The translations under genes and the position numbers were made by a program. 64,000 nucleotides of DNA from a virus, in the IMG/VR virus record IMGVR_UViG_3300045988_042432. One strand, written 5' to 3'. The notes under the pieces were generated by a model. It saw nothing but the letters and a program-made list of their open reading frames with translations, was not told the DNA's origin and searched no databases. Positions 4,555 through 41,535 of this stretch are shown here, piece by piece (the first letter of the stretch is position 1; each line of letters begins with the position of its first letter).

Positions 4555-4786
4555 AGATTGGGGTGAGTTCCTGGAGGGCATTAAGGCTGCACAACAGGCA
4601 ACTGAAGCTCAAAAGGAAGCTAATGAGCAACATGAAAAGTATGAAAGATTGAGATTTGAATTTACATTAGCATTAATCAATAACAATGACCTCTTACATG
4701 AGAGGTCATTTAAAGAGATATGTCAATTAGGAGTTGAATTAACAGATGAATTTATGAAACATGAATCTGAAAAAGGGAAAGTTTAA
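4541..4786 (+). CDS. Hypothetical protein (81 aa, helical/coiled-coil composition)
   Basis: The ORF sits in the operon frame pattern and overlaps its neighbours. No motif was recognised. Confidence 0.5.
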   Translation: MDNSKDWGEFLEGIKAAQQATEAQKEANEQHEKYERLRFEFTLALINNNDLLHERSFKEICQLGVELTDEFMKHESEKGKV

Positions 4787-20500: not shown

Positions 20501-23500
20501 GGATTACAGAACGCAGAACCGTCATGTGCATCTACAGTAGATGTCTCACCTTTAAAGTTGTACACAAATGCTGCAACGTCGCTCATAATAGCCAATCTGT
20601 ATGTCTTAGGAATACCTAGCAAGCTGTTTTGTTGGAAATACTGTAGTGTACCTGGTATAATTACATTTCTCTTTAATTCTGCAAGTTCTCTAGAAGATTG
20701 CTCTAACTCTATACCATTAAATGACACAGGATTAACTTTACCATATTTAGCTTTATTAGGATGTGCTATACTACTACCTGTAGTGACTAGTCGCAAGTTC
20801 TCTGAAGTTAGAAAGTCAGCTAAGAAGTACCTTTCGAGAATAGGATTTAGAGTAATATCTTCATCATTTCTTAACCATGTACTATCTAAGTCAGACAACC
20901 TACTAAGTACCTTGTCTCCTTGCTTAGCTAGTATTAATTCTTGAGTATCATTGTTTATCCATGATGCCTTATCAGTAGGAATAAGAGTATTTAATGCCTT
21001 ATTTAAAACAGAGTTTACTCTACCGTTAGCGTATCTAAGAGGGAATGTCATATTATTATCAATCATATCTTTGACAAACTTCTTCTTCTCTCTCAAGAAC
21101 ATTTTATTATATACATCTTCCTTAGCATATAACTCATTAGCATTAAAATTCAATAAAGCGTTTGGAGACAGTCCGCCTTTCTTGTTTCCATTTAGGACAA
21201 ACGAACCTCCCTTATTAACATGTACATTATCAATATTAGGGACTCCATTTCGATAAGACATATCACCGTATTCTCCTTTAGTAGTTACTGACAATATTGC
21301 TTGAAAGTCTTTAAATGTCATTTTATCTACTAAGTCAATAGGTTCCTTAGGCTGTAATTCTGTTAATATATAGTTATTAATTGCATCAATTTCCATATAA
21401 TCTCCAGCCTGCAATGCCGCATCAGCTAATGCTTGTTGTTTAGCAACTTCTTCTGCCAATTTAGCATTATGTGCTTCTATTTTAGCATTCTCTGCATCCA
21501 CTGCTGCTTGCTTACCAACTATGCTATTATAAGCATCTGTTAGTCCATTCTCTTGTAGTCTCTGTAGGAATGTATCGAGACTTCCTCTATATACATTTCT
21601 ATAGTCATTAAGCACATTATTAAATGTGTTCTTATAGTAAGAACCAACAGTAGACCTAATAGCTTTGTTTAAATCGGAAATTGATGAATTAAGTAAGTCA
21701 ATAGTAAACTCTTCTCCATTCTCGTCAACAAGTTTGATTCCGTCGGCAGTTAAGGTCCACATTACGAATGTTCCCTTATCAGAATATACAGTAGGTTGAA
21801 CATTAATAGTCTTAGATTGTCCTTTGTCAACCTTCCTTAATAGATTAGCATAGAAGTCATATAATATTGAAGAATATCCAATCTCTGCTACAGAGAAACT
21901 AGTAGCACTCTTCTTAACTCCAGTTCTACTAACAACATCGGTTTTAATTGATGTACCTCTAAGCATACCTGGATTTAATCCAAATAATGTATTCTTTAAA
22001 GAAGAGTTCGGATTCTCTATAATGGTTCTTGTGACGTATCTTCTAGTCAATCCAGCTAAATTAGCAATCCTACTATTAGGAATATTATTACCTTCAGCGT
22101 TCTTAATAACAGATTTAAATATTTCTCCAGTTACTATTTGCTCTGCTGCTACTAAATCATTCAAAGTGTTAATTAAAGCACCATCAATAGCTTTTAATGA
22201 GTTAGATGACTTGTCGTAGTAGAATCTAGCTTCTGGACTATCCTCATCAACTTTATCAGTATAATATTTAAGGGTCTTAATAAATGAATACAGGTCTAGG
22301 TTGTCTGGATTGTTAGTCTCGAACTCATTATATACTGTATTTACAAATGCAGAACTATTAGCTAGAGACATTAAGTTCTCTGTTAGATATTTTAGATTGT
22401 CTGCTTCTTTTACATTCTTAAATGCCGCCAGTAAATCTATGTTGCCATTTAGGAATCTAGTATTAATGAAATCATCCATAAACTCTACTAAAGATACATA
22501 TAGTCTCTCCTGTGGAGTTATAGTTTGAGGGTTATTCTCTTCATAGATTGCTTTTAGTGTAGTAAATGAAGGCTCTTTTAATATAGTATCTAATGAACCA
22601 TATTTAACCTTATCAGAAGGACTTAACTCAAGTTTCTTTTGACCTTTACTACCAATAGCAGCCCTATTATATATAAGAGTAATAGTGTCGCCATTATAAG
22701 GTAATTTAAATGAGATGTCTCCCAGAGTAGCGTTATGTACTTCTACTCCCCACTTGTCAAGTAGTTCTTGTCTGTTGCCACGTAATTCATTACTAATATC
22801 AATATCATTCTCTCTCTGGATTTTACGTCTGTTGACATTAGTTTGTTTAATTTCCATAGAATCTAGGTCATTTGTGTCTTGATTCATGGCATACTGAATA
22901 TACTTAGCATTATTAGTTCTATCTACAACTCCAGATATTGAATCAAGCAAATCATAAGTGGTTATAGCTTTGGATTGCTTGTAATCGTTATTAATAATGT
23001 TATATAGAGAGTTAGCTCTGCTATCATTATAGAACTTCTCATAAATAGATTTAAATACATTCAAATCATTTATTTGAAATATTCTAGAACCTCCCCCATT
23101 GTTAATAATTTCTTCAAGAATCCTCTTCAAGTAATAATTAGGAGCTGAATGGAAGTTAATAACTAATTCTTGCAGTCTGTCTCCAAAATATAGAAAGTTC
23201 GCTTCGTCTTTAAGCTTATTCATTGAATGCAAGAACTGTTTAAGTGTAAGGTAATTGTCCCTTATTTGCTCTCCAGTGGTAAAGTTAAGCACAGGAGTTT
23301 GCTCAATAAGTAACCTAGACACATTACCTATTTCAGATATTGCATCCACATTCTCATTAGTTCTCCAGGTTTTAACCATGTTAGAACCAGCTCTAAATTG
23401 ATATTTATTAACTGATACGGGAATCTCTATTCCAATATATCCTTTGTTCTTAATCTCCATATTCTTTCCGAATAGATTCTTAAGAATAGTATCAAAATTA

Positions 23501-24339
23501 CCATTTGACAGTACAGCCCAAGCATTAAACGCATCAATCAGCATTTGATTCTTATACAGGTCTCCGAACTTCTGCTTTCTTGAGACATATGCATTGTCTA
23601 GTTTAGACCTAGGCATGTCCTTAAACAACTCATCAGCTAGTCTAAGAACTTTCTGCATACCTTCCACATCTGGAGTTCCATCTGTATAGATAGAGTTAGG
23701 CATATTGAAATCTGTAGTAATTCCATCTTCTTCATTAGTCACTTTAATATAATCGACTAAGTTCTTGAACATAGTATTCTTATATTTAGCAATATATATG
23801 TTCAAATCATCAGTAGTCTTGATTAATTTACCATCAGTAAAATTAACTAAAGACGATTCAATTATATTATATCTGAATTGATTTAGCATGTACTCTTTTA
23901 CTACTGTAGCAGAGCCATACGTATCATTCAAAGACGGAGTAAGTATTCTCTTCTCCGAGTTGGAAACCTCATTATTGATATTCTCTGGAGCATCCGGAAT
24001 GATAAGGTCTTTATCAGCTACTTCAATTGTAGTTGCTTCAGGAGAAAGTCCAAAATTCTGACCTAGAGGTTGTGCATATTCAGCTAACAGCTGTTCTTTC
24101 TGTGTATCTTTAAGTATTCTTGATGTTTTAATATAATCTTCAAAAACCTTAGAAAGCGAGACATACTCTGCCTCGCTTTCTAGGTTGAATAGGTTAGTAC
24201 CTTTCAAGTTAGTAAAGAAATGCTGAACAAAGTCTGTAGTAGACAACGGTTCAGCCTTTCTAAACTTAAGTACTGTTCCTCTAAGGACACTTTCGGCATC
24301 AATCCTATGTAGTCCTATGTCAAAGTTAGTACATGCCAT
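14575..24339 (-). CDS. Giant virion-packaged two-barrel RNA polymerase-like protein (crAss-like vRNAP class), 3254 aa
   Basis: Uninterrupted 9.8-kb ORF. The DxDxD motif is DYDID, residues 2263-2267, in the context HWQTWLQGSDYDIDKAYIMGYDFD. Position and size match the giant RNAP-containing ORFs of crAss-like phages. Confidence 0.6.
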   Translation of the reverse strand: MACTNFDIGLHRIDAESVLRGTVLKFRKAEPLSTTDFVQHFFTNLKGTNLFNLESEAEYVSLSKVFEDYIKTSRILKDTQKEQLLAEYAQPLGQNFGLSPEATTIEVADKDLIIPDAPENINNEVSNSEKRILTPSLNDTYGSATVVKEYMLNQFRYNIIESSLVNFTDGKLIKTTDDLNIYIAKYKNTMFKNLVDYIKVTNEEDGITTDFNMPNSIYTDGTPDVEGMQKVLRLADELFKDMPRSKLDNAYVSRKQKFGDLYKNQMLIDAFNAWAVLSNGNFDTILKNLFGKNMEIKNKGYIGIEIPVSVNKYQFRAGSNMVKTWRTNENVDAISEIGNVSRLLIEQTPVLNFTTGEQIRDNYLTLKQFLHSMNKLKDEANFLYFGDRLQELVINFHSAPNYYLKRILEEIINNGGGSRIFQINDLNVFKSIYEKFYNDSRANSLYNIINNDYKQSKAITTYDLLDSISGVVDRTNNAKYIQYAMNQDTNDLDSMEIKQTNVNRRKIQRENDIDISNELRGNRQELLDKWGVEVHNATLGDISFKLPYNGDTITLIYNRAAIGSKGQKKLELSPSDKVKYGSLDTILKEPSFTTLKAIYEENNPQTITPQERLYVSLVEFMDDFINTRFLNGNIDLLAAFKNVKEADNLKYLTENLMSLANSSAFVNTVYNEFETNNPDNLDLYSFIKTLKYYTDKVDEDSPEARFYYDKSSNSLKAIDGALINTLNDLVAAEQIVTGEIFKSVIKNAEGNNIPNSRIANLAGLTRRYVTRTIIENPNSSLKNTLFGLNPGMLRGTSIKTDVVSRTGVKKSATSFSVAEIGYSSILYDFYANLLRKVDKGQSKTINVQPTVYSDKGTFVMWTLTADGIKLVDENGEEFTIDLLNSSISDLNKAIRSTVGSYYKNTFNNVLNDYRNVYRGSLDTFLQRLQENGLTDAYNSIVGKQAAVDAENAKIEAHNAKLAEEVAKQQALADAALQAGDYMEIDAINNYILTELQPKEPIDLVDKMTFKDFQAILSVTTKGEYGDMSYRNGVPNIDNVHVNKGGSFVLNGNKKGGLSPNALLNFNANELYAKEDVYNKMFLREKKKFVKDMIDNNMTFPLRYANGRVNSVLNKALNTLIPTDKASWINNDTQELILAKQGDKVLSRLSDLDSTWLRNDEDITLNPILERYFLADFLTSENLRLVTTGSSIAHPNKAKYGKVNPVSFNGIELEQSSRELAELKRNVIIPGTLQYFQQNSLLGIPKTYRLAIMSDVAAFVYNFKGETSTVDAHDGSAFCNPIMSYLENFSLQDSAVGDDKKPIGHDFNGDYGTASLLKFATFSTYNERMRNSMKSDISLYNMFRKMSDFKWNQSTNQFDRAYEGIDLTKNIFGNTMELKDVTGGERIFYRDGNNHYEILGLDRVGDGLYNIRTQAVNEYGNPVKAVGDANVMVQLNVPINSLFELHAALGGVYSESLRNGELAYSDASLAVTANYANNVGWYRPNGEIPSQRNTIQPLKHKMIAYLVNKSAIKVGAQNINGDSSWFNNSPLMEMEFNTEGLGIQMDADHVVTDPEHQSTMTEFSQVISALEAMGFTHSMAKMAYKDLGRVALSSIGGIRDAVYTLVGIKPTDNPDVKSDIYEIVGKAIIKELNKDGDELGTAKTIIEKAKAEFALDRKNNNSHGTDVYKIPYSDPSIFGKTLSSFTSNINKTAIKRKFPGMGAVMAPAYNIVQQFRIGGTNYKYDDIYRIASEQGMTPDEYLQSEQAKIEAQPASTIDRLLPGDRIKLPIQEVASVVARISQNALDKQIALDLAVKRTLTELEKAQNGDGEGVEIAKAQDNYDKAVSAQAKNQANSLMTVDQYLADRGWSIEGSYVPVYVNDFDTYNLVKANFSQFYTDITRPTDLKPAEIYWEDMTGMRHSIFDMPAIQRSFSERTKYDGGKLPKALDSEIQAQIQATFTLLDNGYMPVTGIQKAEYLADPVAFSDKYAANGYIRDLGNGDIAIPIQNLVSNPAELSISKLYVDQFNLGPNDSINDVLTQGYQFFVNRYDKYHAPKIKWYDMMFTRANGKHVYVALGETPSLMEHLSVNKALTESDFVRVGNSVMRVDENGEKMYEAGFYDESGEYHEVVTSYNALGNNTTEEVLVAKTPDSVIDIYGMDSFDSVKINQYTKNKEMMQQVIEAGSERNDRLLKLLFDTYKENEGEEFSVSRLAYQLDGIEKNQKIIDAKKKFVSFQKSLEFTVARIPAQTMQSFMKMKAVAFNDSDKNVVHVSHWQTWLQGSDYDIDKAYIMGYDFDTSGHYVGWSPYFNFNSIESLKASEMLPTPNGKLYAYGSGGVDITNYLNQLNKENFYNPESVSVIAEMLNAIDDARILTYSGEVDTDNANFILNRINNHTMYMTEEFDENGKKARNGRQKIRRSNLLPAFRNSVSSKISNIIQNLKNMNQAYSPIEMGDPQRAAKESASGQEANKITMTSPSSKWVMQMQNMDGKQVIGIAAVGEKVFFANCYYFNEGVRNGDQDWLDNMFFSTRFEGIQTMLSENGKPITVPTLRNIMANVNFDDLAVKKDYWRNLIVRAVEQQLSPEDVARVVQEQLGMQPDQSLVISALLSAATDNAKELILSKINAGPNLAGMYLHMIMLGFSFNDIAKFMTSPTVQTVNDLMKVNVFDEYHDHASVDSVVRALEEGPNIRNYFDSTSLGNFFKRVQEKLLDSGEEAFDKRGNWIQAIKDRFAEGDSIDDIFPAVSYREHRFLEEYKYLQKMKNRLDMDRFAEFKKVNRNARETELLGRFYGLNQGMPTDLGGKMSRLNTYESAITSREQLYKDDKYEKGYNSEVVIKNILNDKPYLSEEQVRAVVNDAVAQGITNGGFSMRKFLDPMNSGYKKSTIAYYNLIKGTWNIFDMIDKIPHFKALFEVYNLTDTTDVNISTKFNLVNSYREALIKENPTYGRAVTKEQLNALGEHVDDVLITGWLAKRNITFRMDEGQKYIGNDMTLHDIKEGGEVFSLATNDGIANFKLWMERTVIPELHNGMVGDKRVRSLLINQFVQGLSRNRRTDPFTRGNTTYMKLPIDMMNVRTESDQAMFSRYQKDFAALKRINLQGLPLTDWFFLYNLVVNKNKYGADRLTTLLNTFDKTDVSDLLIEYQKYVGQSDYDLDVNMDTFSLEDALIRMAPIISESAKGRARDKYIRMRNEETGRLELYERDGEDYYEVNDIPDPSNVDMRRLYDDYFVIRTPNQNAKMKELVLNRNDSMENIVNKIKSLMERNTIQIRINC
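17539..17553 (-). other. Candidate catalytic metal-binding DxDxD motif (DYDID)
   Basis: The reverse complement of 17539-17553 reads gac tat gat att gac, in frame with the 3254-aa ORF. Confidence 0.6.
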
Positions 24340-24344
24340 TATTC

Positions 24345-27300
24345 TTATATATTTAATTTACAGTTCTGACTATCAATTATTTGCTTATTATTAGCAAGAC
24401 TGTTAATATATTCCATAACATCTAATATGTCAGGGTCGTCAAGTTGCTCATCAGTCAAGTAACCTTCGAAGTGATTGTCCACTAATCTTATCTTATCAAG
24501 AAGTGCATCAGCAGCTTCCGGAGTAAGAGAGGTAGTAGCTCTCAATTCTTGGATAACAGTCATGATTTCGGTCTCCCTAAGATTCTCATGGTCTCCAATG
24601 GTATCTTCGAATATCTTGAGTTTCTGTTCTCTATTAGGGTCAAATGGAACTTCATACATCACTGTATCAACTATATTAACTTCACTTCCAATAATGCTTC
24701 CTTTAATTGTTTGTCCACCTTGCAAATATACTGTAAAATCTTGTAAATTACCACTACTATAATCAACATTTTGAATACCCGTAGTATCAATCTCTCCGTC
24801 TTTAGTTTTGGGTAGTACAGACGGACTCTTAACATTTATTTCCTGTAATAGAGTATGTACCTTATTAATGACTGGCATGTTGTTAACATCAACAGTCATA
24901 TCTAGATGAATTACAGGGTCGTTATTAATTAATAGCTGTCTGTTATTTATGTCATTAGTAAGACTAGTATTTACCTTAGTTGCTACTCCTTTTAATATTT
25001 CATCTAATGCAATATCACCTTTCTCTAGATATTCATTGCGTGCATCATTAAGGATTTGGTCTATTGAGGTATAGCCAGTGAAAGCACTGGATACTCCATT
25101 AGCAATTAACGTAATGTTATTATCAAACTCTGACTGTCTGTTATGTGGAACTCCTTTATTAAATTGTCTCTCTGATAATACAGTAGGGTCAATGGTTATT
25201 TCAAAGTTAGGACTTTCTATAGCAGTATCAATATAGAATTGATTGTCATTATTTCTAGTTGGATAGAAATCAGAAGGTCTACTATCATGTGAAGTCGGAG
25301 TTCTAGGAGTATAATATATTCCATTTATAAATGGAGCATATGTAGTAGTTGCAGCTCCTTCTTTAATAGTTGGAGTACCATGGAATATCACATTAAACAT
25401 GTTATTTAGTACAGAGAAGTAGTTATCTCTACCTGCATCTCTAACTGCCCTAACTATATTAAATGATAACTCCTCTAACCTAGTTTCCTTCATTTTACCG
25501 TCTCTAGCCTTAGCTCGGAATACATAACTTTCATCTGATTTCTTACCAGCGGAGAATAGTTTGTAAACTGATGATAATAATCCAACCATTTTGAATGAAC
25601 CACCCATTCCACCTATATTAGATGCTGCATGTTTATAAGTATTCTTACCGTCAGTCAATTCTATGGCTCCGTCGTCAGCTATTAACTGTGCTAAGATATT
25701 GTCCATATCTCTGCCGTTAGTAGCTATGGTGAAGTTCGGATTACCTGGTAATGAAATATACTCTTCTAATATACTAAATAGATTATCCAATATAGATAGT
25801 TGAGCTTGAGCTACTTTAGGGTCTATGTAAACACCGTATGTAAGAGTTCTAGGAACTTTACCGTTAGAGTCAAATGTTTGCCATTCATTTCTACTTAAAT
25901 TTATAGGTCTTACTACCATACCAGGAGCATTAGTCTTGATAGCATCTGCGTATGTAAGTCTAAACATAAATCCATTATAAATAGAAGAATCCCAAGGAAC
26001 TCTCTTCTGTCCATCCACAGTAGATTGGTCGATTAGTCTATTAAACTCATTAACTTCAGAAGTACCTCTAACATCATCAAGGTTATTAGCCTGTCTGTAA
26101 GTGTCATAAGCCTTAATGAAGTTCTTTAATCCAGACCTGTAATTCCACATACTTACTAGCATTCTAGCAGCAGTAGTATTACTTCCAAATGTTCCTAAAT
26201 ATTCCTTTACTTGATTCTTGTCTAATTTAGTTTTACCGTCATCAGCAGTATGAACTAAATCATTAAAAGACAGTCTAAAGTAATTATCAATAAAGGTTCC
26301 ATTGGAATTAGCTACTATCATTCTTATAAGTGGTGGTACCGTCTTAGCTACTTCAGCTTGAGCATCCTTATCACTAAGACCTCTAGATTTAGCTTCATCT
26401 AGCGCGGCTTTACGCTTCTTCTGCATTCTTAGATACATCTCTGCAAGATTAGATTCAGTTACTTTCTCTCCGTCAATTTTAAGATGTTTGTTAGAAGTGG
26501 CAAATACTACACCTTTACCTCTTACAGACTTATCTACCATAGCTACTCCACCATGTCCTGCATAAAGATACATCGGACTAATAATGGCATTAGGAAATGC
26601 TTCTCTAACCTTATCCAAGTTCCAAGTTTGGTCTGGAACTTTCTTAAGTCTAGTCGCAGCAGAGAATGATATATCACTTTCATCAATTCCAAGATATTTA
26701 ACAGTACTAGGATTATCTAAGATTTCCTTCTGCATATTCTTATACCACTTCTTGTACTTATTAATTCTAGCAGCAATATCAGCATCTTTGCCGTTACTAT
26801 TGTTCCATTTCTGCCAAGTGTCAGGATTGGTTAATTTACCTATAGTGAATTGTAAATCATTACCTTTCTCCATAGGTATTCTATATACTATATTGAACGC
26901 AACAGGTTCTACTTTAGTAGAGTCATAACCCTGTTTGTCTCTAGCTTTATCAGTGCCTTCTTCGTTAGTATCATCTTTCCTGATTTCTAGATTGAACGTA
27001 CCATTATTCCAAACTTCTGCACCCAATCCAGCTAAGTATTTATAACCATTGTCGCTTAGTTTCTGAATGAAGTCAGCATCAAACTTCTCGCCAAATGTCA
27101 AGTAGTTTCTAACGTCTACTAACATATCCTTGGCAGGTTGTAATGTATTAGTATCATACTCTACATTACTTCTAGTGAAGACATTCAAATCATCAACTAC
27201 ATCATTCCTTACCACTCTAGTAAATTTACCATCGGAAGTTTCTGCCATACCATATCTCATATACCAGCCGTATGCTCTAATTCCAGAAAGAGGTTCACTT

Positions 27301-30300
27301 AGTAATAATTCATCTATAACAGATTCTTCTCCTTTACCCTCTATATCTGCTAAGAACTCATTTTCAAGCTCATTAGTGCCAGTCATAGTTCTACTAGGTG
27401 GTATAAATGTAGGAGCTTGCACTTCCTTAGATTTCTCTTTAGTTGTAGGAGTAGGCTCTGGTATATCAGTAGATTTTACTGGCTCCGGAGCTTCTTCTGG
27501 ATTAACTGGAGCAGGTTCAGGTATAGGTGGCTCCTGTGCTTTCCTAGAAGGAGTATATCCCTCTAATTCGGCATTAAATGCAGCCATTCTAATTACCTTG
27601 AATCTATCTATCACAGCAGAAGGGTCAGAAGTAGTAGATGTATATTCATCTTGACGTAAATTAGCTTCTTTGATAATAGTTCCCATGTTGCTATTAATAA
27701 AATAAGCTCCGTCCTTAGAACGAGACATCATAGTATAAAATGACTTCATATAATCAATAAGTCCAGAGACTGTATTTGTATTATACTTACTGAAGTTTAC
27801 ATCAATTATAGCATGTTTAAACTCAGAACCTTGAACTGATTTAGGAGTACGCATAATAATCCTACTATCTGCCATATTGGTTAGCATTTTGTAAGTAGGA
27901 GTATTCTCATCATCATACACATATCCGACTTCTCCGTCCCTTTCTAGTATTTGTCTAACGTCGTCTTCGGTAATAGCAGTGACAAATTTACTTCCATTAA
28001 GGATATTGTCTCCGTCTTGATAATAATGTAACTCCATCATGTTACTTATTGTATCTTTGACATTATTAACAGCATTAGCTTGACTCTCTGAATCAGCCAT
28101 TTGTTCTGGAGTAAATGTCAACACACTCAAAGCCGCATTTACCGTAGTATTATTATCATTCTGTTGAGTATTAGTAATACGTAAGCTAATATCCAGCTTA
28201 GGAGTTCTGACCATTAAAGATTCAGATGACTTAACATTATAGACACTGATGGTAGGATTCTCATATCCATTCTGATTTAAGTCTCCTAGTGGAACAATAG
28301 TTACATTGTTCTTATGTGCCCAATTAGACAAATGTTGCATATAAAGGCTATTTACCCAGGTAGCCTCATCAATAAATACAAGCCTCGGAGTTTGAACATC
28401 GTTATACTCTATATCTTCATTGATAATGGCAGCTCTATAAGATTCCATTACTGTTCCACCAGGCGATGTAATGGGGCCAAGTTCTTCTATTGTGAACTGC
28501 TTAGACTCCTTATTATTATGTAATATATCATTAGACAGCTCTGCATAATTAGATTCTCCCAATACATGACTCATTAAATCCTCTATAGTAAACGCTTTGC
28601 CTTCACTTCCTAAAGAAGACACTAGATTATCTACTTGCTGTTTAGTTGGACCTACTTTCCATATCTCTGCATCAGGATAGTACTTCTTAACAATGTTCTG
28701 AATTAACTTAGCAATAACAGCTGTTTTACCAGCACCACCAATACCGTCTACCATTACAGTATTCCAGTATCGTATTAACTCACTACCATAAGTTCCTTTA
28801 GGAGTATCTATATTATTAACAGCAGCATTCATTATATCCGGATTAACTGCCATAGCTGTAGCCAAATATGCAGCATATTCTTGTGAATATAAAGGGGCAT
28901 AATTAGCATCTGTCTCAACAAGGGATTCTCTTAAGTAATAATCAAAATCTGACTTCTTAAAAGCTATCATTGCATGTAATAGCATATAAACATCATAATC
29001 CTCTAAAGATTTAGTCTCCGGGCTAAATTTGGTGTTTCTTTGCTCTACCAAATTATTAATGTTGAATTGATTTCTTACATCAGAGAATAGGTCCTTCAAT
29101 ATAACTTGTGGAGAATCTCCAGTAGTTTGCACTATCTCCTGGAAGTTGTCATATAGCTTGTTCTGTAATGAACTAAGTTCCTTAGAGATAAGCGGATTGT
29201 CATAGCTAACATTGTCAATATCATCAAGAGTAGGGGTTGGCATAGTATCTATATCTTTAAATAGCTGCATGCCTTTATACTTAAGTTCTTTTAGGAACTG
29301 GTATCTATCCTTACCCTTTAATATATTAGCTGTCAATTTAGATATTTGTTGACCTGTTCTACCATGTTTGCTAAATTGATTAACAGCATTCATTCTAGAC
29401 AATTCTTTCAAGAATGTAAGTTGCCTAGTTATTAATGCCAACTCCTCTTTCATGATTGCAGCTATATCACCTCTAATGATTCCATACTTCTCTTCTTTTG
29501 GGAAGTAGGTTTCTAGGAAGTAATTCATAGTAGCATTGTGCCCAAATGGATTATTGATGTCTAAATCAGTAGTAGAACTGGCATCAATAACAGCACTAAG
29601 CATGTCTATGATTTTGAATGCTTGGTCTATTTCCTTCTCCTTATTACCGTCCAATACGTAGTCAGATACAGAAGGGGCGTTCTCTAGTCTTCTATTCTCA
29701 TCTCTTAGTAAGTCAAAGATAGTGAGTTTGCTTCCATATACAGTATTAGTAAGTTGGTCAAGGAAATCATATACTGGACTAGTTTTGATTTGTAAAACAT
29801 CCTTCCTTAATTGAGCTATAGTAGCATTAGTAGGATTAGACATTACAAGACTTTCCATATCCTTAGCTGCTTGTACAAATGTCTTCTCGAAATTATTTAT
29901 TCTCTCTTCGACTTTCTCCATTACTACAGGAGCGTCTTCCGAAGGGTACACGTCCCCATTGTTGTCCATGAAGTCTAAAGTGTCATAAACAAGTCTCTTT
30001 CTATGTACATCAGAATGAAGAATATTATGAATATTGTCTATAACAGTATCCAAATTATTACCGTCTATGTCTTTTAATGTTTCTAATAAGGCATCATATA
30101 TAGGATGTGGTATTCTGTTCCCGTCTATATCTAAAACTGGTACATCATTTGCAATAGCTTTTAATACTACATCAAATGCTGCTTCATTAGAGATTTTGTC
30201 TCCAAGTACACTTAATAGAATCTCCTTGGTATCAGCATCCATAAATCCAAACTGCATAGCTTGTTGTATTACAGCTTGCACTCTTCCGATTACTTCTAGA

Positions 30301-33248
30301 TTCTGAACTTCAATAGCTTGACGTCTTAGGTCTGCGTCAACTTCAGACTCACCTTCAATAGGAGAGAATCTTTCTCTTACGAACTTCTTGTTTAGTACTG
30401 GTCTAATATTCTTGTCTCTTCCTAATTTAGAAATAAGTACCTGTTCAGCATCAGCACCTTCTGGCACATCTAACTTGTCAACAGTGGCTCTTAAATCGAT
30501 TAGATTATTATATGCCCATGCTTTGAACTTATAATAATCATCGTAAGTTACTGTGCCTTCTTCAAGTTTAGTAGAGAAATCTTTATTAAGCTTCTTAAAT
30601 ATACCATAGGCTGTATCAAGAGCTTGCATCTTGTCTTGCTGTTTATAAGATGCATAATCAGACTCGTAACCTTTAACTTGTTCAGGAGCCATATCTTGGA
30701 ATCTTTGTCCTGATTTAAACTCAACAAAATCCCTAAATGTTGGTGCATAGAAGAATGCATTTACACTATTATCAATAGCGAACAGCATTTGACCAGTATA
30801 GTATTCAGAGAATGTTCCGTCTAGGAATTTCTGTTTCTTCAAATCAAGGTCAGCCTTCTCTTGTCTTAGCCTTTGTAAGTCGTCAGCATAAGTAGTACTC
30901 TTCTTACTTTCTGTTCCAGTGTCTTGTGTATTAGACTCTAATGCGGCTATCTTTCTACGAACTTCTACAATGTCAGAAACTAAACTATTAAAATCTTGAA
31001 GCATTTTGCCATTATATCCATTCTCTATAGCTCTACCGAACTTCTGCCCGTCTGATACTTCAAAGCTAGCTAGAGCTTTCATCCTAATGTCCCCCATTAC
31101 CATTTTGTCAAGGAGCTGTTCATCAGAGAAGTTTAATCCCTCTTGATTAATAACAGCGTCAAGATGCTGTAGGTAATTCTTAGTCATGGTATAGACTGCT
31201 TCGTTTTGATTGTCACTAGGAGTAGTAGGAGAGGTCCATATAGTACCTTGGTCTGTATCTTCTGTCTTAGTAGCAGACAGATTCTTATTGCCAAGCTTGC
31301 CCTTTTTCCGCATGTCATTTAATTCTTCCATTAACTCGCTAGTTCTGCCATTTCTAATAAGGTAGATAAGTTCTTGGTTAGTTTGTTCATTAGTGGCCTT
31401 CCTATTCTGTGCAATATCTACACCATAGAAGATAGCACCACCAAGAGCTCCTCCGAAGAAGTTCATACCATATCTTTCAGCTGCATTCTCCCAAGCATCA
31501 AGTTTCTGTTTACTCTTAGTGTAACCCATTTCTTGAGCCCAGTTAAATGTAGCTTTCGATAGGTCAACTACTAATTCTTCAGACATTTCTTCCAGACCTT
31601 CACCTATGGCCTTACCTACGAATCCTGTAGTATGATTTCTAATGTCAGACCAATAATTAGAAGAGTATTGTTTAGCAGTATTAAACATTTTAGCCAGCTT
31701 GTTAGGCTTAGGCATGTTACTAGTAGCAAGTTGACCCAATCCCTTATTAATTTCTCCAGTTACTTGTGAGATAGCCTTTCTGTAAGTGAGAGCGTCTCCT
31801 TTAAGCTCTGGGAAGAATAATTCACCAAGTCCAGTTCTATCAACTGCATACATGCCAGCTACTGCTCCCCATGCTATAGCTGCTGCTTCTGCTCTATCAG
31901 CTCCTTGCTCTATAGCATCTTCAAAAGTCTCAAGACCTTGCATCATAGCCATATAACCTAGAGCTGTATTAGCTGCCATTCTGTTATTTCTTTTAAGAAT
32001 AGTCTCAAACGCTTTTGTACCTTTAAGCCTATTCATCTCATACAAGCTGCCTATGGCTCCTTTATATTTATCAGGATTAGAAGCCAGTAATCTAGTTGAT
32101 TCCAAATCAGCAGCTTGCATTGCAGCTTTGTACTTCTTATCTGTACCTAGTAATGCATTCATGCCTTTGAAGATAGTTCTTTGCTGTCCCCACTGTAATG
32201 CCACATCGGTTACTAAATCAAAGAAATTCTCTGCTGACATCAATTTACCTTGAGAGTATTCTGATTTAGAGCCTTTAAATGTTCTACCTATACCTTGTAT
32301 TAGATTAGCTGTAGGCGTATCTTCGTTCAGTCCTAGAGTAGATTTATAAATAGTGGGTAGTATATCCATTAACTGAGCACCAATCATAGCTCCTCCATAT
32401 ACCAAATTCACATAAGGTACAAATAAAGGTGCTAGTGAAGTCACTGTCTTCATAACAGTACCAGTAACAGACTTATCAAGTCCGTCAGAATCAAAGAAGT
32501 CATATTTATTAGCAGCAGAACCGTCTACTGTGAAACTGTCAAACATAGATTTAAACTTACGACCATAAGCTTCTCTTCCGGCTAGTGTCTCATAGTAGTA
32601 GGTTCCTTCGTCATTGTATTTAAGGTCACCTTTACTATGCTTAACTATTCTGCCAGAGTATGGGTCTTTATGCTCTCCGTCTGAATCCCATTGGGCAAGT
32701 ACTAAAGGTTCTGAAAGTGATTTCAAGAAACCTAATGGGCTGCCAAATAGAACATTATCATTAGGAGTATAGTCTTCGTACTTACCAGTTTCGTAGTTAA
32801 ATACCTTCTGTGTTTGTGCTAGTTCTGATGCTGTCCATTCTCTATTATCTGTGCGTCCTATTTGTGACACACCAGTCTTCAATCTATCAGGATTAAGTAC
32901 CCTTCTAACATTAAAATTAATAGGTTTATCCTCTGCATCATTAGGTTTTAATTGAGAATATGGGTCCCAATCAACGTCCTCCATGATTGTATCCTCGAAT
33001 TGGTCATTGGCAAACTTTTGATAAGTAAATGCAGCACTATCATACTTTTGGTTAAATGCTACTTCATTAAACTTACCATTCTCATCCTTAAACATTTCTT
33101 GGACAAACTTACTATTCCTGTAAGTATTCTTATCTAGTAATCCAGTATTATCAGCTGTTAATCCTACATCTCTAAAATTGTCCATAGTAAATGAAGGATT
33201 CTCTAATTGAGCTACAAACCAATCATTAGGTTTCTTTATATCATTCAT
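24345..33248 (-). CDS. Giant polyvalent virion protein, 2967 aa, with an embedded SF1 (RecD/Dda-like) helicase core and a Pro-rich linker
   Basis: Uninterrupted 8.9-kb ORF. All SF1 motifs appear in order (see the helicase feature at 27700-28830). The N-terminal ~1450 aa and the C-terminal ~1050 aa are unrecognised. Confidence 0.7.
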   Translation of the reverse strand: MNDIKKPNDWFVAQLENPSFTMDNFRDVGLTADNTGLLDKNTYRNSKFVQEMFKDENGKFNEVAFNQKYDSAAFTYQKFANDQFEDTIMEDVDWDPYSQLKPNDAEDKPINFNVRRVLNPDRLKTGVSQIGRTDNREWTASELAQTQKVFNYETGKYEDYTPNDNVLFGSPLGFLKSLSEPLVLAQWDSDGEHKDPYSGRIVKHSKGDLKYNDEGTYYYETLAGREAYGRKFKSMFDSFTVDGSAANKYDFFDSDGLDKSVTGTVMKTVTSLAPLFVPYVNLVYGGAMIGAQLMDILPTIYKSTLGLNEDTPTANLIQGIGRTFKGSKSEYSQGKLMSAENFFDLVTDVALQWGQQRTIFKGMNALLGTDKKYKAAMQAADLESTRLLASNPDKYKGAIGSLYEMNRLKGTKAFETILKRNNRMAANTALGYMAMMQGLETFEDAIEQGADRAEAAAIAWGAVAGMYAVDRTGLGELFFPELKGDALTYRKAISQVTGEINKGLGQLATSNMPKPNKLAKMFNTAKQYSSNYWSDIRNHTTGFVGKAIGEGLEEMSEELVVDLSKATFNWAQEMGYTKSKQKLDAWENAAERYGMNFFGGALGGAIFYGVDIAQNRKATNEQTNQELIYLIRNGRTSELMEELNDMRKKGKLGNKNLSATKTEDTDQGTIWTSPTTPSDNQNEAVYTMTKNYLQHLDAVINQEGLNFSDEQLLDKMVMGDIRMKALASFEVSDGQKFGRAIENGYNGKMLQDFNSLVSDIVEVRRKIAALESNTQDTGTESKKSTTYADDLQRLRQEKADLDLKKQKFLDGTFSEYYTGQMLFAIDNSVNAFFYAPTFRDFVEFKSGQRFQDMAPEQVKGYESDYASYKQQDKMQALDTAYGIFKKLNKDFSTKLEEGTVTYDDYYKFKAWAYNNLIDLRATVDKLDVPEGADAEQVLISKLGRDKNIRPVLNKKFVRERFSPIEGESEVDADLRRQAIEVQNLEVIGRVQAVIQQAMQFGFMDADTKEILLSVLGDKISNEAAFDVVLKAIANDVPVLDIDGNRIPHPIYDALLETLKDIDGNNLDTVIDNIHNILHSDVHRKRLVYDTLDFMDNNGDVYPSEDAPVVMEKVEERINNFEKTFVQAAKDMESLVMSNPTNATIAQLRKDVLQIKTSPVYDFLDQLTNTVYGSKLTIFDLLRDENRRLENAPSVSDYVLDGNKEKEIDQAFKIIDMLSAVIDASSTTDLDINNPFGHNATMNYFLETYFPKEEKYGIIRGDIAAIMKEELALITRQLTFLKELSRMNAVNQFSKHGRTGQQISKLTANILKGKDRYQFLKELKYKGMQLFKDIDTMPTPTLDDIDNVSYDNPLISKELSSLQNKLYDNFQEIVQTTGDSPQVILKDLFSDVRNQFNINNLVEQRNTKFSPETKSLEDYDVYMLLHAMIAFKKSDFDYYLRESLVETDANYAPLYSQEYAAYLATAMAVNPDIMNAAVNNIDTPKGTYGSELIRYWNTVMVDGIGGAGKTAVIAKLIQNIVKKYYPDAEIWKVGPTKQQVDNLVSSLGSEGKAFTIEDLMSHVLGESNYAELSNDILHNNKESKQFTIEELGPITSPGGTVMESYRAAIINEDIEYNDVQTPRLVFIDEATWVNSLYMQHLSNWAHKNNVTIVPLGDLNQNGYENPTISVYNVKSSESLMVRTPKLDISLRITNTQQNDNNTTVNAALSVLTFTPEQMADSESQANAVNNVKDTISNMMELHYYQDGDNILNGSKFVTAITEDDVRQILERDGEVGYVYDDENTPTYKMLTNMADSRIIMRTPKSVQGSEFKHAIIDVNFSKYNTNTVSGLIDYMKSFYTMMSRSKDGAYFINSNMGTIIKEANLRQDEYTSTTSDPSAVIDRFKVIRMAAFNAELEGYTPSRKAQEPPIPEPAPVNPEEAPEPVKSTDIPEPTPTTKEKSKEVQAPTFIPPSRTMTGTNELENEFLADIEGKGEESVIDELLLSEPLSGIRAYGWYMRYGMAETSDGKFTRVVRNDVVDDLNVFTRSNVEYDTNTLQPAKDMLVDVRNYLTFGEKFDADFIQKLSDNGYKYLAGLGAEVWNNGTFNLEIRKDDTNEEGTDKARDKQGYDSTKVEPVAFNIVYRIPMEKGNDLQFTIGKLTNPDTWQKWNNSNGKDADIAARINKYKKWYKNMQKEILDNPSTVKYLGIDESDISFSAATRLKKVPDQTWNLDKVREAFPNAIISPMYLYAGHGGVAMVDKSVRGKGVVFATSNKHLKIDGEKVTESNLAEMYLRMQKKRKAALDEAKSRGLSDKDAQAEVAKTVPPLIRMIVANSNGTFIDNYFRLSFNDLVHTADDGKTKLDKNQVKEYLGTFGSNTTAARMLVSMWNYRSGLKNFIKAYDTYRQANNLDDVRGTSEVNEFNRLIDQSTVDGQKRVPWDSSIYNGFMFRLTYADAIKTNAPGMVVRPINLSRNEWQTFDSNGKVPRTLTYGVYIDPKVAQAQLSILDNLFSILEEYISLPGNPNFTIATNGRDMDNILAQLIADDGAIELTDGKNTYKHAASNIGGMGGSFKMVGLLSSVYKLFSAGKKSDESYVFRAKARDGKMKETRLEELSFNIVRAVRDAGRDNYFSVLNNMFNVIFHGTPTIKEGAATTTYAPFINGIYYTPRTPTSHDSRPSDFYPTRNNDNQFYIDTAIESPNFEITIDPTVLSERQFNKGVPHNRQSEFDNNITLIANGVSSAFTGYTSIDQILNDARNEYLEKGDIALDEILKGVATKVNTSLTNDINNRQLLINNDPVIHLDMTVDVNNMPVINKVHTLLQEINVKSPSVLPKTKDGEIDTTGIQNVDYSSGNLQDFTVYLQGGQTIKGSIIGSEVNIVDTVMYEVPFDPNREQKLKIFEDTIGDHENLRETEIMTVIQELRATTSLTPEAADALLDKIRLVDNHFEGYLTDEQLDDPDILDVMEYINSLANNKQIIDSQNCKLNI
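27395..27545 (-). other. Pro/Glu-rich low-complexity linker
   Basis: QEPPIPEPAPVNPEEAPEPVKSTDIPEPTPTTKEKSKEVQAPTFIPP lies immediately after the helicase core. It looks like a junction between two fused modules. Confidence 0.7.
27700..28830 (-). other. SF1 helicase core (motifs I-VI)
   Basis: Motifs seen: I GIGGAGKT (28722-28745, residues 1502-1509); Ia VGPTKQQVDNL; II LVFIDEATWV; III VPLGDLNQ; V TPKSVQGSEF; VI FYTMMSRSK. Confidence 0.75.
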
Positions 33249-33249
33249 A

Positions 33250-35082
33250 TCAATTATTTAATATTTTAGATGTACTTGGAGTCATAAATGAGTCTAATTT
33301 AGCTGCTCTAGCTGCCCTTCCCTTTAGGATTGTCATATCTCCCCAGTCAGCAGGTACAGTAGGATTCTCGCCAGCGACGTTAAGAGCTAATCCAGCACTC
33401 TCTCTTAGTGGCATATAAGCAACTGTTCTATATATGTCATCATAAGGTTTCATTCCAAGTGTTCCTTTAAATAAGTTCTCTATATCATCAGGGTCAACAT
33501 TAGGCATACTTCTGATATTAGTCATATAACCTTCCCCTGCCCTATCTACATCAATTGCACCTTTCTTGCTGCCAAACCATGGGTCTTCCCCGCTAGCATA
33601 TACGTTAGTCATTAAGAAAGGACGGAATTTAGATTTGTCCCAAACTAGTCTTCCGTTAGCATCTTGCACCATATATCCTTCTAAGTCATGCTTCATAAGT
33701 ATGCTCTGCACTTCATCAGCACTTATATTAGCTCCTCTGGATTCTATTTCTTTTTGAGCTTCGATGAATCTAGGCATAAGTTCAAAGTCTGGAGCTATAC
33801 TGCCGTTTTGGTCATATGTGTATGGTAGAACTGCCCTTGCAAGTTGAGTTCCGTCATACAGCACCTGCCCAAATTTAGAAGAATCGACTTTCTGATTGCC
33901 TAAATGAATGCTATTACTGTCAACAATACCTCCAATTCCAGACATTAGTAATGACTCTAATGAGCCTTTAGCAACTAAGTTACCGTCTTGTCCTTGTGGT
34001 GTACCATAAAATACAGCATCCGCTTCCATTTGGTAACCTTGTCCGGGATTAAGTATGTATTTACCAGCATCTCCATTCTCCCCCATGTAATAAGACATAA
34101 TAGGTTTAATCTGCATAGTCTTATTAGATTTAGAGCCAGATTCAGATGCTCCCTCTGTGGCATTCTTATCATAATCTACTTTAATAGAATAGTCAGAATC
34201 AATTCCAGATGAAATCATACCAGCCAGTAATTCATATGCACCTTTAGTAGGGTCCAATCCAGACAATGCAGCCTTACCTCTTAGTAAAGCCTTTGCATTA
34301 TTAGGCATGGTAGACAGCAAGTAAGTAAGAGCTACTCTAGCCTTCTTTGATTGGTCAGTATTACTTTCTGTAATTTTATACACTCCGTCCTGTCCAGTAG
34401 CTAGTAATTCGTCTATTCCCTCCTTTATATCTTTACCTTTCTTAGTTTTAAAGAACTCTTTAGAAGTGCTATCCTTACCTATTTTACCAATGAGGTCCCA
34501 TACTGTCTTATTAATACTATCCATGCTGACTCCATTAGCAATTACAGTTGATATATTATTAGCATATGGTAATTTATTAGCTCGTAGGTCAGCCAGGTCA
34601 GCATTAGTAAGAACTCTATCACCTTGCTCTAGAGTTGCTTTAGTAGTAATTCCGTCCTCTCCCATTACATAATATCTGCCGTCAGTAGTAATCGCCATTT
34701 CACCAAAGGAGCCATTCTTCTGTGACTCTGCTATAGCATCTTTTAGTTGAGTTTTGCCCTCTCTAAGTCTTGCCATTAGTTGAAGAGTTCTTCTATAAGC
34801 TGTGGCAGTTTGATTTGGATTGAATGGGTTGTTCTGACTACTGAATAGATTACCTATTTCTTCAGCCACTGCATCAGTGTCGCTAATAAGACCCTCTTTA
34901 TACAGAGCAGTAATCAATGATTTATCTATACCTCCTATTGTATTCTTATCTGCTTCTGCATTGCTGCTCATTGCTCCTTCAACATAGGGAGCCGTAGGTT
35001 GCGGTTGAGGAACGTTAGTATAGCTAACAAAGGCGGGAATACCCCCGCCCTGTAGCTTCTGTATTTTATTTATTATTTCCAT
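33250..35082 (-). CDS. Virion internal/ejection-class protein, 610 aa
   Basis: The N-terminus MEIINKIQKLQGGGIP carries the shared aromatic/Leu-Q-x-GG motif. The ORF is coupled to its neighbours. No enzymatic motif was seen. Confidence 0.6.
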   Translation of the reverse strand: MEIINKIQKLQGGGIPAFVSYTNVPQPQPTAPYVEGAMSSNAEADKNTIGGIDKSLITALYKEGLISDTDAVAEEIGNLFSSQNNPFNPNQTATAYRRTLQLMARLREGKTQLKDAIAESQKNGSFGEMAITTDGRYYVMGEDGITTKATLEQGDRVLTNADLADLRANKLPYANNISTVIANGVSMDSINKTVWDLIGKIGKDSTSKEFFKTKKGKDIKEGIDELLATGQDGVYKITESNTDQSKKARVALTYLLSTMPNNAKALLRGKAALSGLDPTKGAYELLAGMISSGIDSDYSIKVDYDKNATEGASESGSKSNKTMQIKPIMSYYMGENGDAGKYILNPGQGYQMEADAVFYGTPQGQDGNLVAKGSLESLLMSGIGGIVDSNSIHLGNQKVDSSKFGQVLYDGTQLARAVLPYTYDQNGSIAPDFELMPRFIEAQKEIESRGANISADEVQSILMKHDLEGYMVQDANGRLVWDKSKFRPFLMTNVYASGEDPWFGSKKGAIDVDRAGEGYMTNIRSMPNVDPDDIENLFKGTLGMKPYDDIYRTVAYMPLRESAGLALNVAGENPTVPADWGDMTILKGRAARAAKLDSFMTPSTSKILNN

Positions 35083-40133: not shown

Positions 40134-40916
40134 TTAATTTAAAGATTGAATTGTGTTTATTATCTCTTGCAAGTCATCGTTCTTATAATCATACCTTAAA
40201 ACATACAACTTACAGTTATTAGCTTTACATTTCTCTAGTTTATAACTGTCTCTTTCAACAGTTTTATTATATCCAAGTACTCCTCCAAACCTAGCTATAG
40301 GTTTATAATGCTGCTCCCCATTATATTCTATAGCAATATTATATTTAGGTATGTAGATGTCAAATCTTTGCTTACCTAGCCAATCAGGACTATATTCATA
40401 TAATATTTCCAAATCTGGAAATTCATTACATAACCTACTATATAGCTTGTATTGTGACTTGTACAAGCATTTTGGGCAACCATTACCTGATAAGTGTGAG
40501 TGAGGAGTCTGGTAGAACTCACCATGAATGGGGCATACTATACAGACATTAACTCTATTAGTAACATATGTAACTTTAGAGTAGTCATATTTATAATTAT
40601 GTACTTCATTAGCTTTCTCTATAAACTTATCAGTGCTGTTTCTGCACTTCTTTCCTACAAGTGCTCTAGCACATTTGGGACATCCATGCCCGTTGAACAA
40701 ATGAAGTGGTTTAGCTTCAAACTCATGAGAGCATACGTTGCATTTAACTTTAACTTTGGTTTTAGCATCTATATATTTAACTTTAGATATGTCTAATTTA
40801 TCACCAAATGTGTTTGTCAGCCTGGTTATGACTTCTTCTTGTGTTAAGTACTTACCCATAACATTATATTTGACTACAAATTTAGTGACTAAATTAGACA
40901 TATCAAAGCTAACCAT
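40134..40916 (-). CDS. Free-standing endonuclease: two tandem Zn-ribbon modules plus a C-terminal Vsr/DUF559-like PD-(D/E)xK domain (homing-endonuclease-like)
   Basis: There are two copies of the module KV.Y....V.V.C..(C/H)..F......HL.G.GCPKC. The C-terminus FDIYIPKYNIAIEYNGEQHY...ERDSYKLEKCK...KLYVLRY matches the DUF559/Vsr-like pattern (DF...IE.DG..H...D..R...L...RF). Confidence 0.7.
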   Translation of the reverse strand: MVSFDMSNLVTKFVVKYNVMGKYLTQEEVITRLTNTFGDKLDISKVKYIDAKTKVKVKCNVCSHEFEAKPLHLFNGHGCPKCARALVGKKCRNSTDKFIEKANEVHNYKYDYSKVTYVTNRVNVCIVCPIHGEFYQTPHSHLSGNGCPKCLYKSQYKLYSRLCNEFPDLEILYEYSPDWLGKQRFDIYIPKYNIAIEYNGEQHYKPIARFGGVLGYNKTVERDSYKLEKCKANNCKLYVLRYDYKNDDLQEIINTIQSLN

Positions 40917-40968: not shown

Positions 40969-41535
40969 TTACTTTTCAGGAGCCTCCACATATTCAGGCT
41001 CACGTTCATCTTGCTGTTTTAAATAGGTAAACATCTTCTTCCCGAGTGCCTTATAATCTCTATCTGCCTTAGATTTATCTGCTCTCTTAGCCATACGAAT
41101 AAGAGTTTTAGTATTCTTTCTACTAAAGATTCTCTCTCCTCCATTTAATTCCATTTGAGTGGAACCATCGGGAGCTATAACCTTCATAGTTGGTACTTCA
41201 TCATCGTCATCTATGTCAAGCTCATCTCCTTCCTTAATTCCAGAACCTTGATTTACTTCTAATACAAACTGCACATCGTCTTCTTCAGCAATAGTTTCAT
41301 CGTGCGGTTGTCCCTTATAAACTGATATTACTTCAAAATCTTCGTCAATAAATATTATATCAAGTGGAATGTCAGTATCTTGCATCCAGAAACCAACTGT
41401 TTGAGGTTCATCATATATGAACAGCATACCTTCATCTTCAGCAAGCTCTTTCTTGCCTTGCAATCCTTTGGTCTTCTCCTCATCTGTTTGAGCTACCTCT
41501 ACATTATACTTCTTATCGCCAATTTCTATTCTCAT
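40969..41535 (-). CDS. DUF192-domain protein with an acidic/basic C-terminal extension
   Basis: VEVAQTDEEKTKGLQGKKELAEDEGMLFIY....VGFWMQDTDIPLDIIFIDEDFEVISV......VLEVNQG..IKEGDEL follows the DUF192 consensus (A.t...r.rGLm.r..l....GMLF.f.....fWMknt..pLDiiF.d......i....vLE...G). Confidence 0.75.
   Translation of the reverse strand: MRIEIGDKKYNVEVAQTDEEKTKGLQGKKELAEDEGMLFIYDEPQTVGFWMQDTDIPLDIIFIDEDFEVISVYKGQPHDETIAEEDDVQFVLEVNQGSGIKEGDELDIDDDDEVPTMKVIAPDGSTQMELNGGERIFSRKNTKTLIRMAKRADKSKADRDYKALGKKMFTYLKQQDEREPEYVEAPEK

Follow-up and report, generated by a model that had tools for sequence, protein, structure and literature searches.

The window analyzed here, a 64,000-nucleotide (nt) stretch of virus record IMGVR_UViG_3300045988_042432 from IMG/VR, contains an uninterrupted, ATG-initiated gene (24345..33248, minus strand, as are all features below unless stated otherwise) for a 2,967-amino acid (aa) protein of ~340 kDa, within which lies a superfamily 1B (SF1B) helicase of the RecD/Dda type. 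This protein is encoded 5 nt upstream of a giant virion-type RNA polymerase (RNAP), in what looks like a Zeta-group crAss-like phage. We propose, tentatively and at slightly less than even chances for the reading as a whole, that it is a packaged, catalytically intact helicase protein that is co-ejected with the virion RNAP and unwinds the incoming DNA on behalf of that polymerase.

The helicase module comprises residues 1346-1895 (27564..29213), as delimited by Pfam matches, an AlphaFold2 model, Foldseek, and alignment conservation. A first-pass annotation, made from the letters of the sequence alone, had listed motifs I, Ia, II, III, V, and VI in canonical order, and all of them lie at the residues that it gave: motif I, or Walker A (GIGGAGKT, residues 1502-1509, 28722..28745); motif Ia, recognized from sequence (GPTKQQ, residues 1533-1538); motif II, or Walker B (FIDEATWV, residues 1625-1632, 28353..28376); motif III (GDLNQ, residues 1655-1659, 28272..28286); motif V, recognized from sequence and alignment (VQGSEF, residues 1805-1810, 27819..27836); and motif VI (FYTMMSRSK, residues 1837-1845, 27714..27740). 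A motif IV region (PKLDISLRITN, residues 1683-1693, 28170..28202) is present as well. The significance of these motifs was examined by counting retained residues in 218 homologs of more than 2,000 aa, every one of which (218/218) keeps (i) the G, G, K, and T of Walker A, (ii) Asp1627 and Glu1628 of Walker B, (iii) Gln1659 of motif III, (iv) Arg1690 of motif IV, and (v) Thr1839 and Arg1843 of motif VI. Moreover, these ATPase-motif positions are invariant columns in alignments of 26 and of 56 diverse sequences. This strict conservation holds down to ~25% overall identity (the homologs lie at ~25-35%) and therefore argues for a working NTPase; as judged from these alignments, the core is under purifying selection and is a real and probably active SF1B enzyme.

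Profile and structure comparisons, which the first-pass annotation had named as the check on its proposal of a complete SF1 core of the RecD/Dda kind, bear that proposal out and lead to SF1B families, not to another P-loop family. In Pfam, the region exceeds the cut-offs of AAA_30 (31.9 bits, cut-off 27, E 1.4e-7) and AAA_19 (29.1 bits, cut-off 25.1), and it matches Viral_helicase1 weakly (22.3 bits, cut-off 21). An AlphaFold2 model of residues 1430-1905, built with the 26-sequence alignment, has a mean predicted local distance difference test score (pLDDT) of 90.5 and a predicted template modeling score (pTM) of 0.89. The module comprises a short helical lead-in and two RecA-like domains, with insertions between motifs Ia and II and between motifs IV and V, read from the secondary structure of the model, at the places where the 1B pin and the 2B/SH3 domain of SF1B enzymes would be expected. 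When this model was compared with the PDB by Foldseek, SF1B helicases alone occupied the top of the results (probability 1.00, E 4e-9 to 1e-7), with coronavirus nsp13, Sen1, RecD of RecBCD, DSH9, Dda, RecD2, Dna2, and IGHMBP2 as the leading matches. Nearly all of the 50 best PDB matches are SF1B enzymes, with global TM-scores of just 0.3-0.43 that result from the insertions and from domain orientation. The assignment to the SF1B helicases of the RecD/Dda type is secure. Since identity to the PDB helicases in the fold search is only 10-14%, and since searches of PDB sequences with a single sequence or a profile gave weak matches to the Walker A region only, the domain is a very divergent member of that group. 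As far as the sequence and the modeled fold go, DNA and RNA substrates are not discriminated.

A search with the whole protein returned 829 cluster representatives, nearly all of them 2,800-3,250 aa long with the same Pfam domains. Further, when the helicase region by itself was used in an exhaustive HMMER scan of 1.84 billion representative proteins, 211 representatives were recovered, and nearly all of these carry the domain at residues ~1,400-2,000 of a 2,500-3,500-aa protein; by this sequence census, the domain is essentially confined to the giant-protein architecture. At 90% identity, the window's protein falls in a cluster of 5,534 members, which lie on contigs of ~185 kb, and an unannotated record from human faeces in Mexico (MT835470.1) is 99.7% identical to the window at the protein level.

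Further modules lie on either side of the helicase. The N-terminal module (residues 1-660, 31269..33248), delimited by alignment conservation, is the best-conserved segment of the protein (mean identity 48%), with the helicase core second (34%). It contains Gly-rich, moderately hydrophobic helices at residues ~265-300, 455-470, and 596-612, among which Gly599, Gly600, and Gly603 are invariant and Gly604 is nearly so in the homolog alignment; the hydrophobicity of the module is modest (Kyte-Doolittle maximum 1.38). The middle module (residues 661-1345, 29214..31268), likewise delimited by conservation, is variable, with a mean identity of 27%. The C-terminal module (residues 1986-2967, 24348..27293) was recognized from split orthologs and from a model of residues 1975-2967, which has a pLDDT of 76 and a mixed alpha/beta fold without a structural relative among PDB folds (best E-value 0.41). 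No family match was found for the N-terminal and C-terminal modules in Pfam, PHROG, or NCBIfam; PHROGs gave no match for the whole helicase-bearing protein or its giant neighbors, and an NCBIfam search of the helicase-bearing protein returned nothing meaningful.

Between the helicase and the C-terminal module lies an acidic Pro/Glu/Thr-rich spacer (residues ~1896-1985, 27294..27563), identified by its composition and by the homolog alignment. The first-pass annotation had described a Pro/Glu-rich segment of about 50 aa here, followed by ~1050 residues, and had read it as a gene-fusion junction. The segment is as described (13 Pro and 8 Glu in residues 1901-1950) and the count beyond the spacer comes to ~1,015 residues; the fusion junction is not borne out. 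Across 26 diverse homologs the spacer varies from 51 to 354 aa with a mean identity of 13%, and its composition ranges from low-complexity sequence rich in Pro, Glu, Thr, Lys, and Ser to long helical insertions. From these alignments it is a flexible, position-conserved, and hypervariable element, and genes break elsewhere. A 174-aa open reading frame (ORF) on the plus strand (27130..27654) begins with TTG opposite the conserved helicase and linker coding region and was regarded as spurious.

Natural gene splits lie upstream of the helicase in the three split lineages examined, namely L002 (MT835492), L005 with L006, and the more distant L004, where L005 and L006 represent one split protein on two independent contigs, one of them from pig gut. 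The products are ~1,540-1,557 aa plus ~1,554-1,603 aa, and the break in all three lineages precedes Walker A by ~160 aa, at residues ~1295-1348 in the numbering of the window's protein. The fission point is thus the C-terminal end of the middle module, and the helicase stays joined to the C-terminal module. The split ORFs overlap by 13-19 nt in different frames, so that a programmed frameshift is possible; two separate proteins are argued for by a new Cys pair that flanks the break. Orthologs split at the linker, which the first-pass annotation had suggested looking for, were not seen. One candidate, in L026, where the protein (P0228) ends 185 aa past the helicase, proved to be a single in-frame TAG with the next ORF in the same frame, and was rejected because relatives recode TAG; L027 is fragmented and uninformative in this respect.

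The gene is 3' of the muzzle and cargo-like genes and 5' of the virion RNAP gene, all co-oriented, with gaps of 1 nt to the upstream 610-aa gene and 5 nt to the RNAP gene, which agrees with the earlier placement of the protein in a virion block. The RNAP (3,254 aa, 14575..24339) carries the motif GSDYDIDKAYIM from residue 2263 (17539-17553), to be compared with GSDFDVDKLYIM in crAss001 gp50 and DFDID in phi14:2 gp66. No sequence match to this neighbor was found in the PDB; its identity as an RNAP is drawn from the alignment of this catalytic motif to crAss001 gp50 and from synteny with Lera, a Zeta crAss-like phage (PV725988). It is followed by an 804-aa protein (12159..14573) that has the zincin-like motif HEFAH at residue 644 and is located 3' of the RNAP gene as is phi14:2 gp65, and by the last giant protein of the block (~1,523 aa, 7588..12159), whose likely start, reading MACSYS, is an ATG in a TAATG overlap with the previous stop.

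These four proteins have an unusual distribution of cysteines. The sole Cys of the 2,967-aa helicase protein, Cys2963 (codon 24360..24362; SQNCKLNI), lies five residues before the C terminus, in a low-confidence, disordered tail of the C-terminal model. The RNAP, with four Cys in total, starts with MAC (24331-24339) and ends with INC (14578-14580); the zincin protein starts with MSC (14565-14573), ends with ENC (12162-12164), and has no other Cys; and the last giant protein has a Cys at position 3 only (MACS; 12151-12159), with none at its C terminus. Together the four proteins contain 8 Cys in 8,548 residues, and 6 of the 8 sit at the three junctions, whereas structural proteins of the same window contain ~1% Cys or more. 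Moreover, 219 of 220 large homologs have a Cys among their 12 C-terminal residues.

The pattern recurs elsewhere. In phi14:2 (locus L009), the sole Cys of gp67 is its last residue, gp66 has just Cys3 and Cys2179, and gp65 just Cys3; in crAss001 (L003), gp47 has just Cys2339 of 2,341 residues, gp50 has Cys5, one internal Cys, and Cys2404, and gp49 has just Cys5. Likewise, p-crAssphage (L028, BK010471) gp45 ends SFSCM and gp44 starts MSC; in Flavobacterium phage Fpv3 (L029), Cys4286 is the only Cys of a 4,287-aa protein, whose neighbor downstream starts MAC; and in cr118_1 (L025) a protein starting MIC comes after a C-terminal Cys (HCKGE). Six further Zeta lineages carry the same pattern, and the loci that show it include L002, L004, L005, L015, L018, and L022-L024. 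In each series the first protein has no N-terminal Cys and the last no C-terminal Cys. In a split Zeta gene, a new Cys appears on either side of the break (EACKVTA-stop / MQSNC), with both codons inside the 19-nt overlap. These features, like the position of Cys2963 in a disordered tail, point to pairing. The signature as we define it here, that is, a protein poor in Cys that has one at its C terminus but none at its N terminus, with a virion RNAP beginning M-x-C as the next protein, is seen in the window's helicase protein.

Intermolecular disulfides have been observed experimentally in crAss001 tails. On the simplest reading, which is possible if somewhat more doubtful than not, the giant ejected proteins of crAss-like phages are joined head-to-tail in gene order by disulfides, from a C-terminal Cys to a Cys at positions 3-6 of the next protein, into one reducible train. 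In this phage, such a train would run from the helicase protein through the virion RNAP and the zincin protein to the last giant protein. The disulfide would stand in place of the peptide bond of an ancestral polyprotein, because fissions create Cys pairs and multi-module chains have no Cys at their internal joins. Metal bridging or another form of recognition is possible as an alternative to a disulfide. We found no mention of the terminal-Cys pattern of these giant proteins in the literature examined. If the disulfides are real, the signature would explain the exit of several 100-370-kDa proteins from the capsid in fixed order, and would provide a simple sequence rule for identifying ejected proteins of uncultured crAss-like phages.

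The giant protein is, in our analysis, the positional counterpart of phi14:2 gp67 and crAss001 gp47, with a helicase module acquired in this lineage. The synteny and the Cys pattern make packaging in the virion likely. We hypothesize that ejection delivers the protein to the host before the virion RNAP, to whose N terminus it is joined through its C-terminal Cys; that in the ATP-containing cytoplasm the helicase would load on the entering genome and unwind it; and that the opened or single-stranded template so supplied would be used by the virion RNAP for early transcription. The acidic, disordered spacer would free the motor relative to the RNAP-linked C-terminal module, and the chain would separate by reduction only in the reducing cytoplasm. 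In vitro, phi14:2 gp66 transcribes single-stranded or denatured DNA only, and QDE-1, a structural relative of gp66, needs a helicase and RPA (bioRxiv 10.1101/2020.03.07.982082). A strictly conserved, adjacent, and apparently tethered helicase would be a testable answer to this template problem of the crAss-like virion RNAP in one abundant lineage of gut phages, and, if the chain is true, it would be coupled physically to the N terminus of the polymerase that it serves. The roles put forward in the first-pass annotation, namely promoter opening, genome internalization, and displacement of host proteins, are likewise hypotheses.

Several observations weigh against this proposal. Our literature search found no Zeta-phage isolate or virion proteome. 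The window family shows no detectable homology to crAss001 gp47, crAss001 gp50, or phi14:2 gp67, for which hhalign gave a probability below 1%; for gp47 and gp67, BLASTP was not significant either. Further, the giant proteins of phi14:2, crAss001, p-crAssphage, and Fpv3 gave no helicase signal; since these four phages manage without one, virion-RNAP function does not generally depend on a helicase. RNA helicases (nsp13, Sen1, and Upf1) are among the top fold matches, so that the substrate could be RNA or an RNA:DNA hybrid. Finally, a 340-kDa protein must unfold for passage through the tail and then refold.

The most probable of the alternatives, which we nevertheless consider unlikely, is that the enzyme acts on RNA or RNA:DNA hybrids in the wake of the virion RNAP, stripping nascent early transcripts from the single-stranded template or terminating early transcription. 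Besides nsp13, Sen1, and Upf1, the best PDB folds include SETX and IGHMBP2; the weak Viral_helicase1 match points in the same direction, as does a TPA protein, in the 90% cluster of homolog P0020, that was auto-named after UPF1. Polymerases of single-stranded templates, such as QDE-1 and N4 vRNAP, make RNA:DNA hybrids that need an RNA-release factor, and this kind of action on transcription complexes is known from Sen1/SETX and, in functional terms, from the virion ATPases of vaccinia. However, the top Pfam family, AAA_30, is of the RecD/TraA/Dda type, the fold scores of RecD, Dda, RecD2, and DSH9 are almost equal to those of the RNA helicases, and the counterpart in the Suoliviridae (see below) is clearly Dda-like, a DNA helicase type. 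The sequence itself does not discriminate between the two substrates.

Less likely still is a motor for genome internalization, in which the Gly-rich N-terminal module would anchor the protein at the envelope and the helicase would pull in the ~185-kb genome. The large genome, as seen in the contigs of the cluster members, and the conserved N-terminal module with its hydrophobic, Gly-rich helices are consistent with such a role, and the ejection proteins of the N4-like phage DEV have been termed a 'genome ejection motor' (PMC11445570). SF1B enzymes, however, travel along a single strand, and the DNA that enters is double-stranded; the modest Kyte-Doolittle maximum given above leaves membrane insertion uncertain; and ~100-kb crAss-like phages lack the domain, as do some with other large proteins.

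A function in host takeover or counter-defense, whereby the helicase would displace host DNA-bound proteins, act as a decoy or inhibitor of RecBCD-type or helicase defenses, or partner a nuclease of the block, seems improbable. Such a nuclease is hinted at by the table for Lera, where 'exonuclease V' is the label of the giant protein that closes the block (PMC12386605), and by the PD-(D/E)XK domain reported from a large protein of the transcription block in some crAss-like phages (PMC7886860), and Gabija and Schlafen helicases are among the weaker fold matches. However, no nuclease domain was found by Pfam or NCBIfam in the helicase-bearing protein, and neither a nuclease nor a P-loop domain in the 1,523-aa protein of the window; further, strict conservation and an unchanging place in the protein across over 200 diverse lineages resemble a core function, not an arms-race gene. 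Very improbable is an unpackaged intracellular factor for replication, recombination, or late transcription that is encoded in the late operon by chance: our literature search found no proteome of the lineage, and the protein has no sequence homology to gp67 and gp47, whose place in the virion is proven, but its gene sits tightly between the cargo-like genes, 1 nt away, and the virion RNAP gene, 5 nt away, it shares its Cys pattern exactly with proteins that mass spectrometry has shown to be in the virion, and the replication helicases of Lera are encoded separately, in a block on the opposite strand (PMC12386605).

The remaining genes of the neighborhood place the window among the crassviruses. 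Its major capsid protein, only ~23% identical to those of classified Crassvirales, matches Pfam Crass_capsid (4e-14), and a 1,601-aa muzzle protein matches crAss_MUZ (2.5e-32). The window combines crassvirus structural genes with a Lera-like gene order, as in the Zeta group (genomes of ~145-192 kb), and it is from gene order, gene sizes, a DUF192 gene, the ~185-kb contigs, and TAG recoding in relatives that the phage looks like a member of this group, for which a matching genome size and TAG recoding have been described (PMC7886860). The DUF192 protein (40969-41535; 1.2e-27) occupies the same place as the DUF192 gene of Lera and serves as a synteny marker. In L002, L004, L005, L022, L023, and L024, each gene contains dozens of TAG codons in frame, and long ORFs require TAG read-through; in this block, the window phage keeps to the standard code.

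Upstream of the helicase-bearing gene (33250..39737) are two cargo-like proteins without Cys, of 610 aa (33250-35082) and 1,554 aa (35073-39737), which as a pair correspond in position to crAss001 gp45 and gp46. They open with similar short motifs (KIQKLQGGG and RKYQTGGK), as do relatives (PKFQGG and KFAKGG), and p-crAssphage gp45 (L028 4727-10600) opens with MDVLKFLQGG, which resembles them; the cargo-like proteins may have a common N-terminal signal. Between the muzzle and cargo genes, in an otherwise Cys-poor block, sits a 260-aa protein with 12 Cys (40134-40916), which matches the DUF4379 treble-clef zinc finger (4e-11) and, more weakly, CapR and DUF723. In the RNAP gene of several relatives (L015 12947-19717, L004 14817-22067, and L005 10258-17205), the ORF stops within the catalytic motif, after WLQGSDY, and resumes ~0.4-1 kb downstream (MGYDFD or MGFN). 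Such a gap would fit an insertion, perhaps an intron, in the DxDxD motif, as has been described for Zeta phages (PMC7886860); the RNAP gene of the window is uninterrupted.

The first-pass annotation knew of no helicase described within the giant virion proteins of crAss-like phages. This holds for the literature we examined, in which we found no discussion of the domain; in database annotation, the domain is already present. In Lera, ORF191 is listed as a 'RecD-like protein' in Supplementary Table S1, and the main text never mentions RecD (PMC12386605). By comparison of tables, this gene measures 8,346 nt against 8,904 nt here, lies on the same strand, and shares with the window the gene order muzzle, DUF192, two hypothetical proteins, helicase-bearing gene, RNAP, and 'exonuclease V' gene. 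In BFVD, the fragments A0A8S5RTY8 ('RecD-like protein') and A0A8S5TKT5 ('Helicase') have the same fold, with TM-scores of 0.76 and 0.67 at 21-22% identity; the cr118_1 polyprotein (see below) and the TPA protein named after UPF1 complete these annotations. The legend of Fig. 1c in PMC7886860 lists an 'SF1 helicase' among replication genes. Our literature searches on helicases in phage virions or among ejected proteins, and on Crassvirales with RecD, found nothing relevant, and no described helicase delivered within a tailed-phage particle was found in the literature searched, so that this may be the first.

A second association of a helicase with the RNAP in crassviruses is that of cr118_1 (Besingivirus coli, Suoliviridae; MT774379.1), in which a 4,946-aa polyprotein annotated as 'DNA helicase' (QOR58373.1, L025 6661-21501) contains a zincin HEAFH motif at residue 1734, the RNAP motif GSDFDIDK at residue 3209, and a Dda-like helicase at ~4440-4910 (AAA_30 1.7e-25, UvrD_C_2 4.6e-11, 26% identity to T4-type Dda). 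As in the window phage, an SF1B helicase is thus covalently part of the giant virion-RNAP block. However, in cr118_1 it is at the extreme C terminus, after the zincin and RNAP, whereas in the Zeta phage it is in a separate protein upstream of the RNAP; further, the Zeta domain (AAA_30 1.4e-7) is far more divergent than the conventional Dda-like domain of cr118_1, and a hidden Markov model (HMM) of the window helicase matched the cr118_1 helicase at just 7.8e-12. On this sequence evidence, the two could have either a common origin or have been captured independently. Since a helicase lies in the virion-RNAP block of at least two crassvirus lineages, at different positions, a functional link to the polymerase is strengthened.

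phi14:2 gp67 and crAss001 gp47 resemble the window protein in being giant, in occupying the same position between cargo and virion RNAP, and in having a single Cys at or near the C terminus, but differ from it in containing no Walker A and no match to the helicase HMM. By mass spectrometry, gp65, gp66, and gp67 of phi14:2 and gp47, gp49, and gp50 of crAss001 are virion proteins. T4 Dda, RecD/RecD2, and Pif1 share with the window domain motifs I, Ia, and II-VI, two RecA-like domains, and insertions at the 1B and 2B positions; they match it in the fold search at E 1e-7 to 1e-9, yet with only 10-14% identity, and unlike them the window domain is embedded in a 2,967-aa protein.

Two better-known systems offer parallels to a delivered motor. 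The poxvirus proteins NPH-I and NPH-II are helicases/ATPases that are packaged in the virion and serve the packaged RNA polymerase. They share with the proposed role, by analogy, only the concept of a motor delivered with an early-transcription polymerase, being SF2 enzymes of eukaryotic viruses that act in the core particle and are unrelated in sequence. TraI and TrwC are conjugative relaxases with AAA_30-type SF1B domains that are transferred with DNA into the recipient. Unlike in these relaxases, no relaxase domain was detectable in the window protein by Pfam or NCBIfam, the secretion machine differs, and no covalent link to DNA is known here; like the window protein, they are large and multidomain, carry a RecD-like helicase, and are threaded together with DNA through a channel that spans the envelope.

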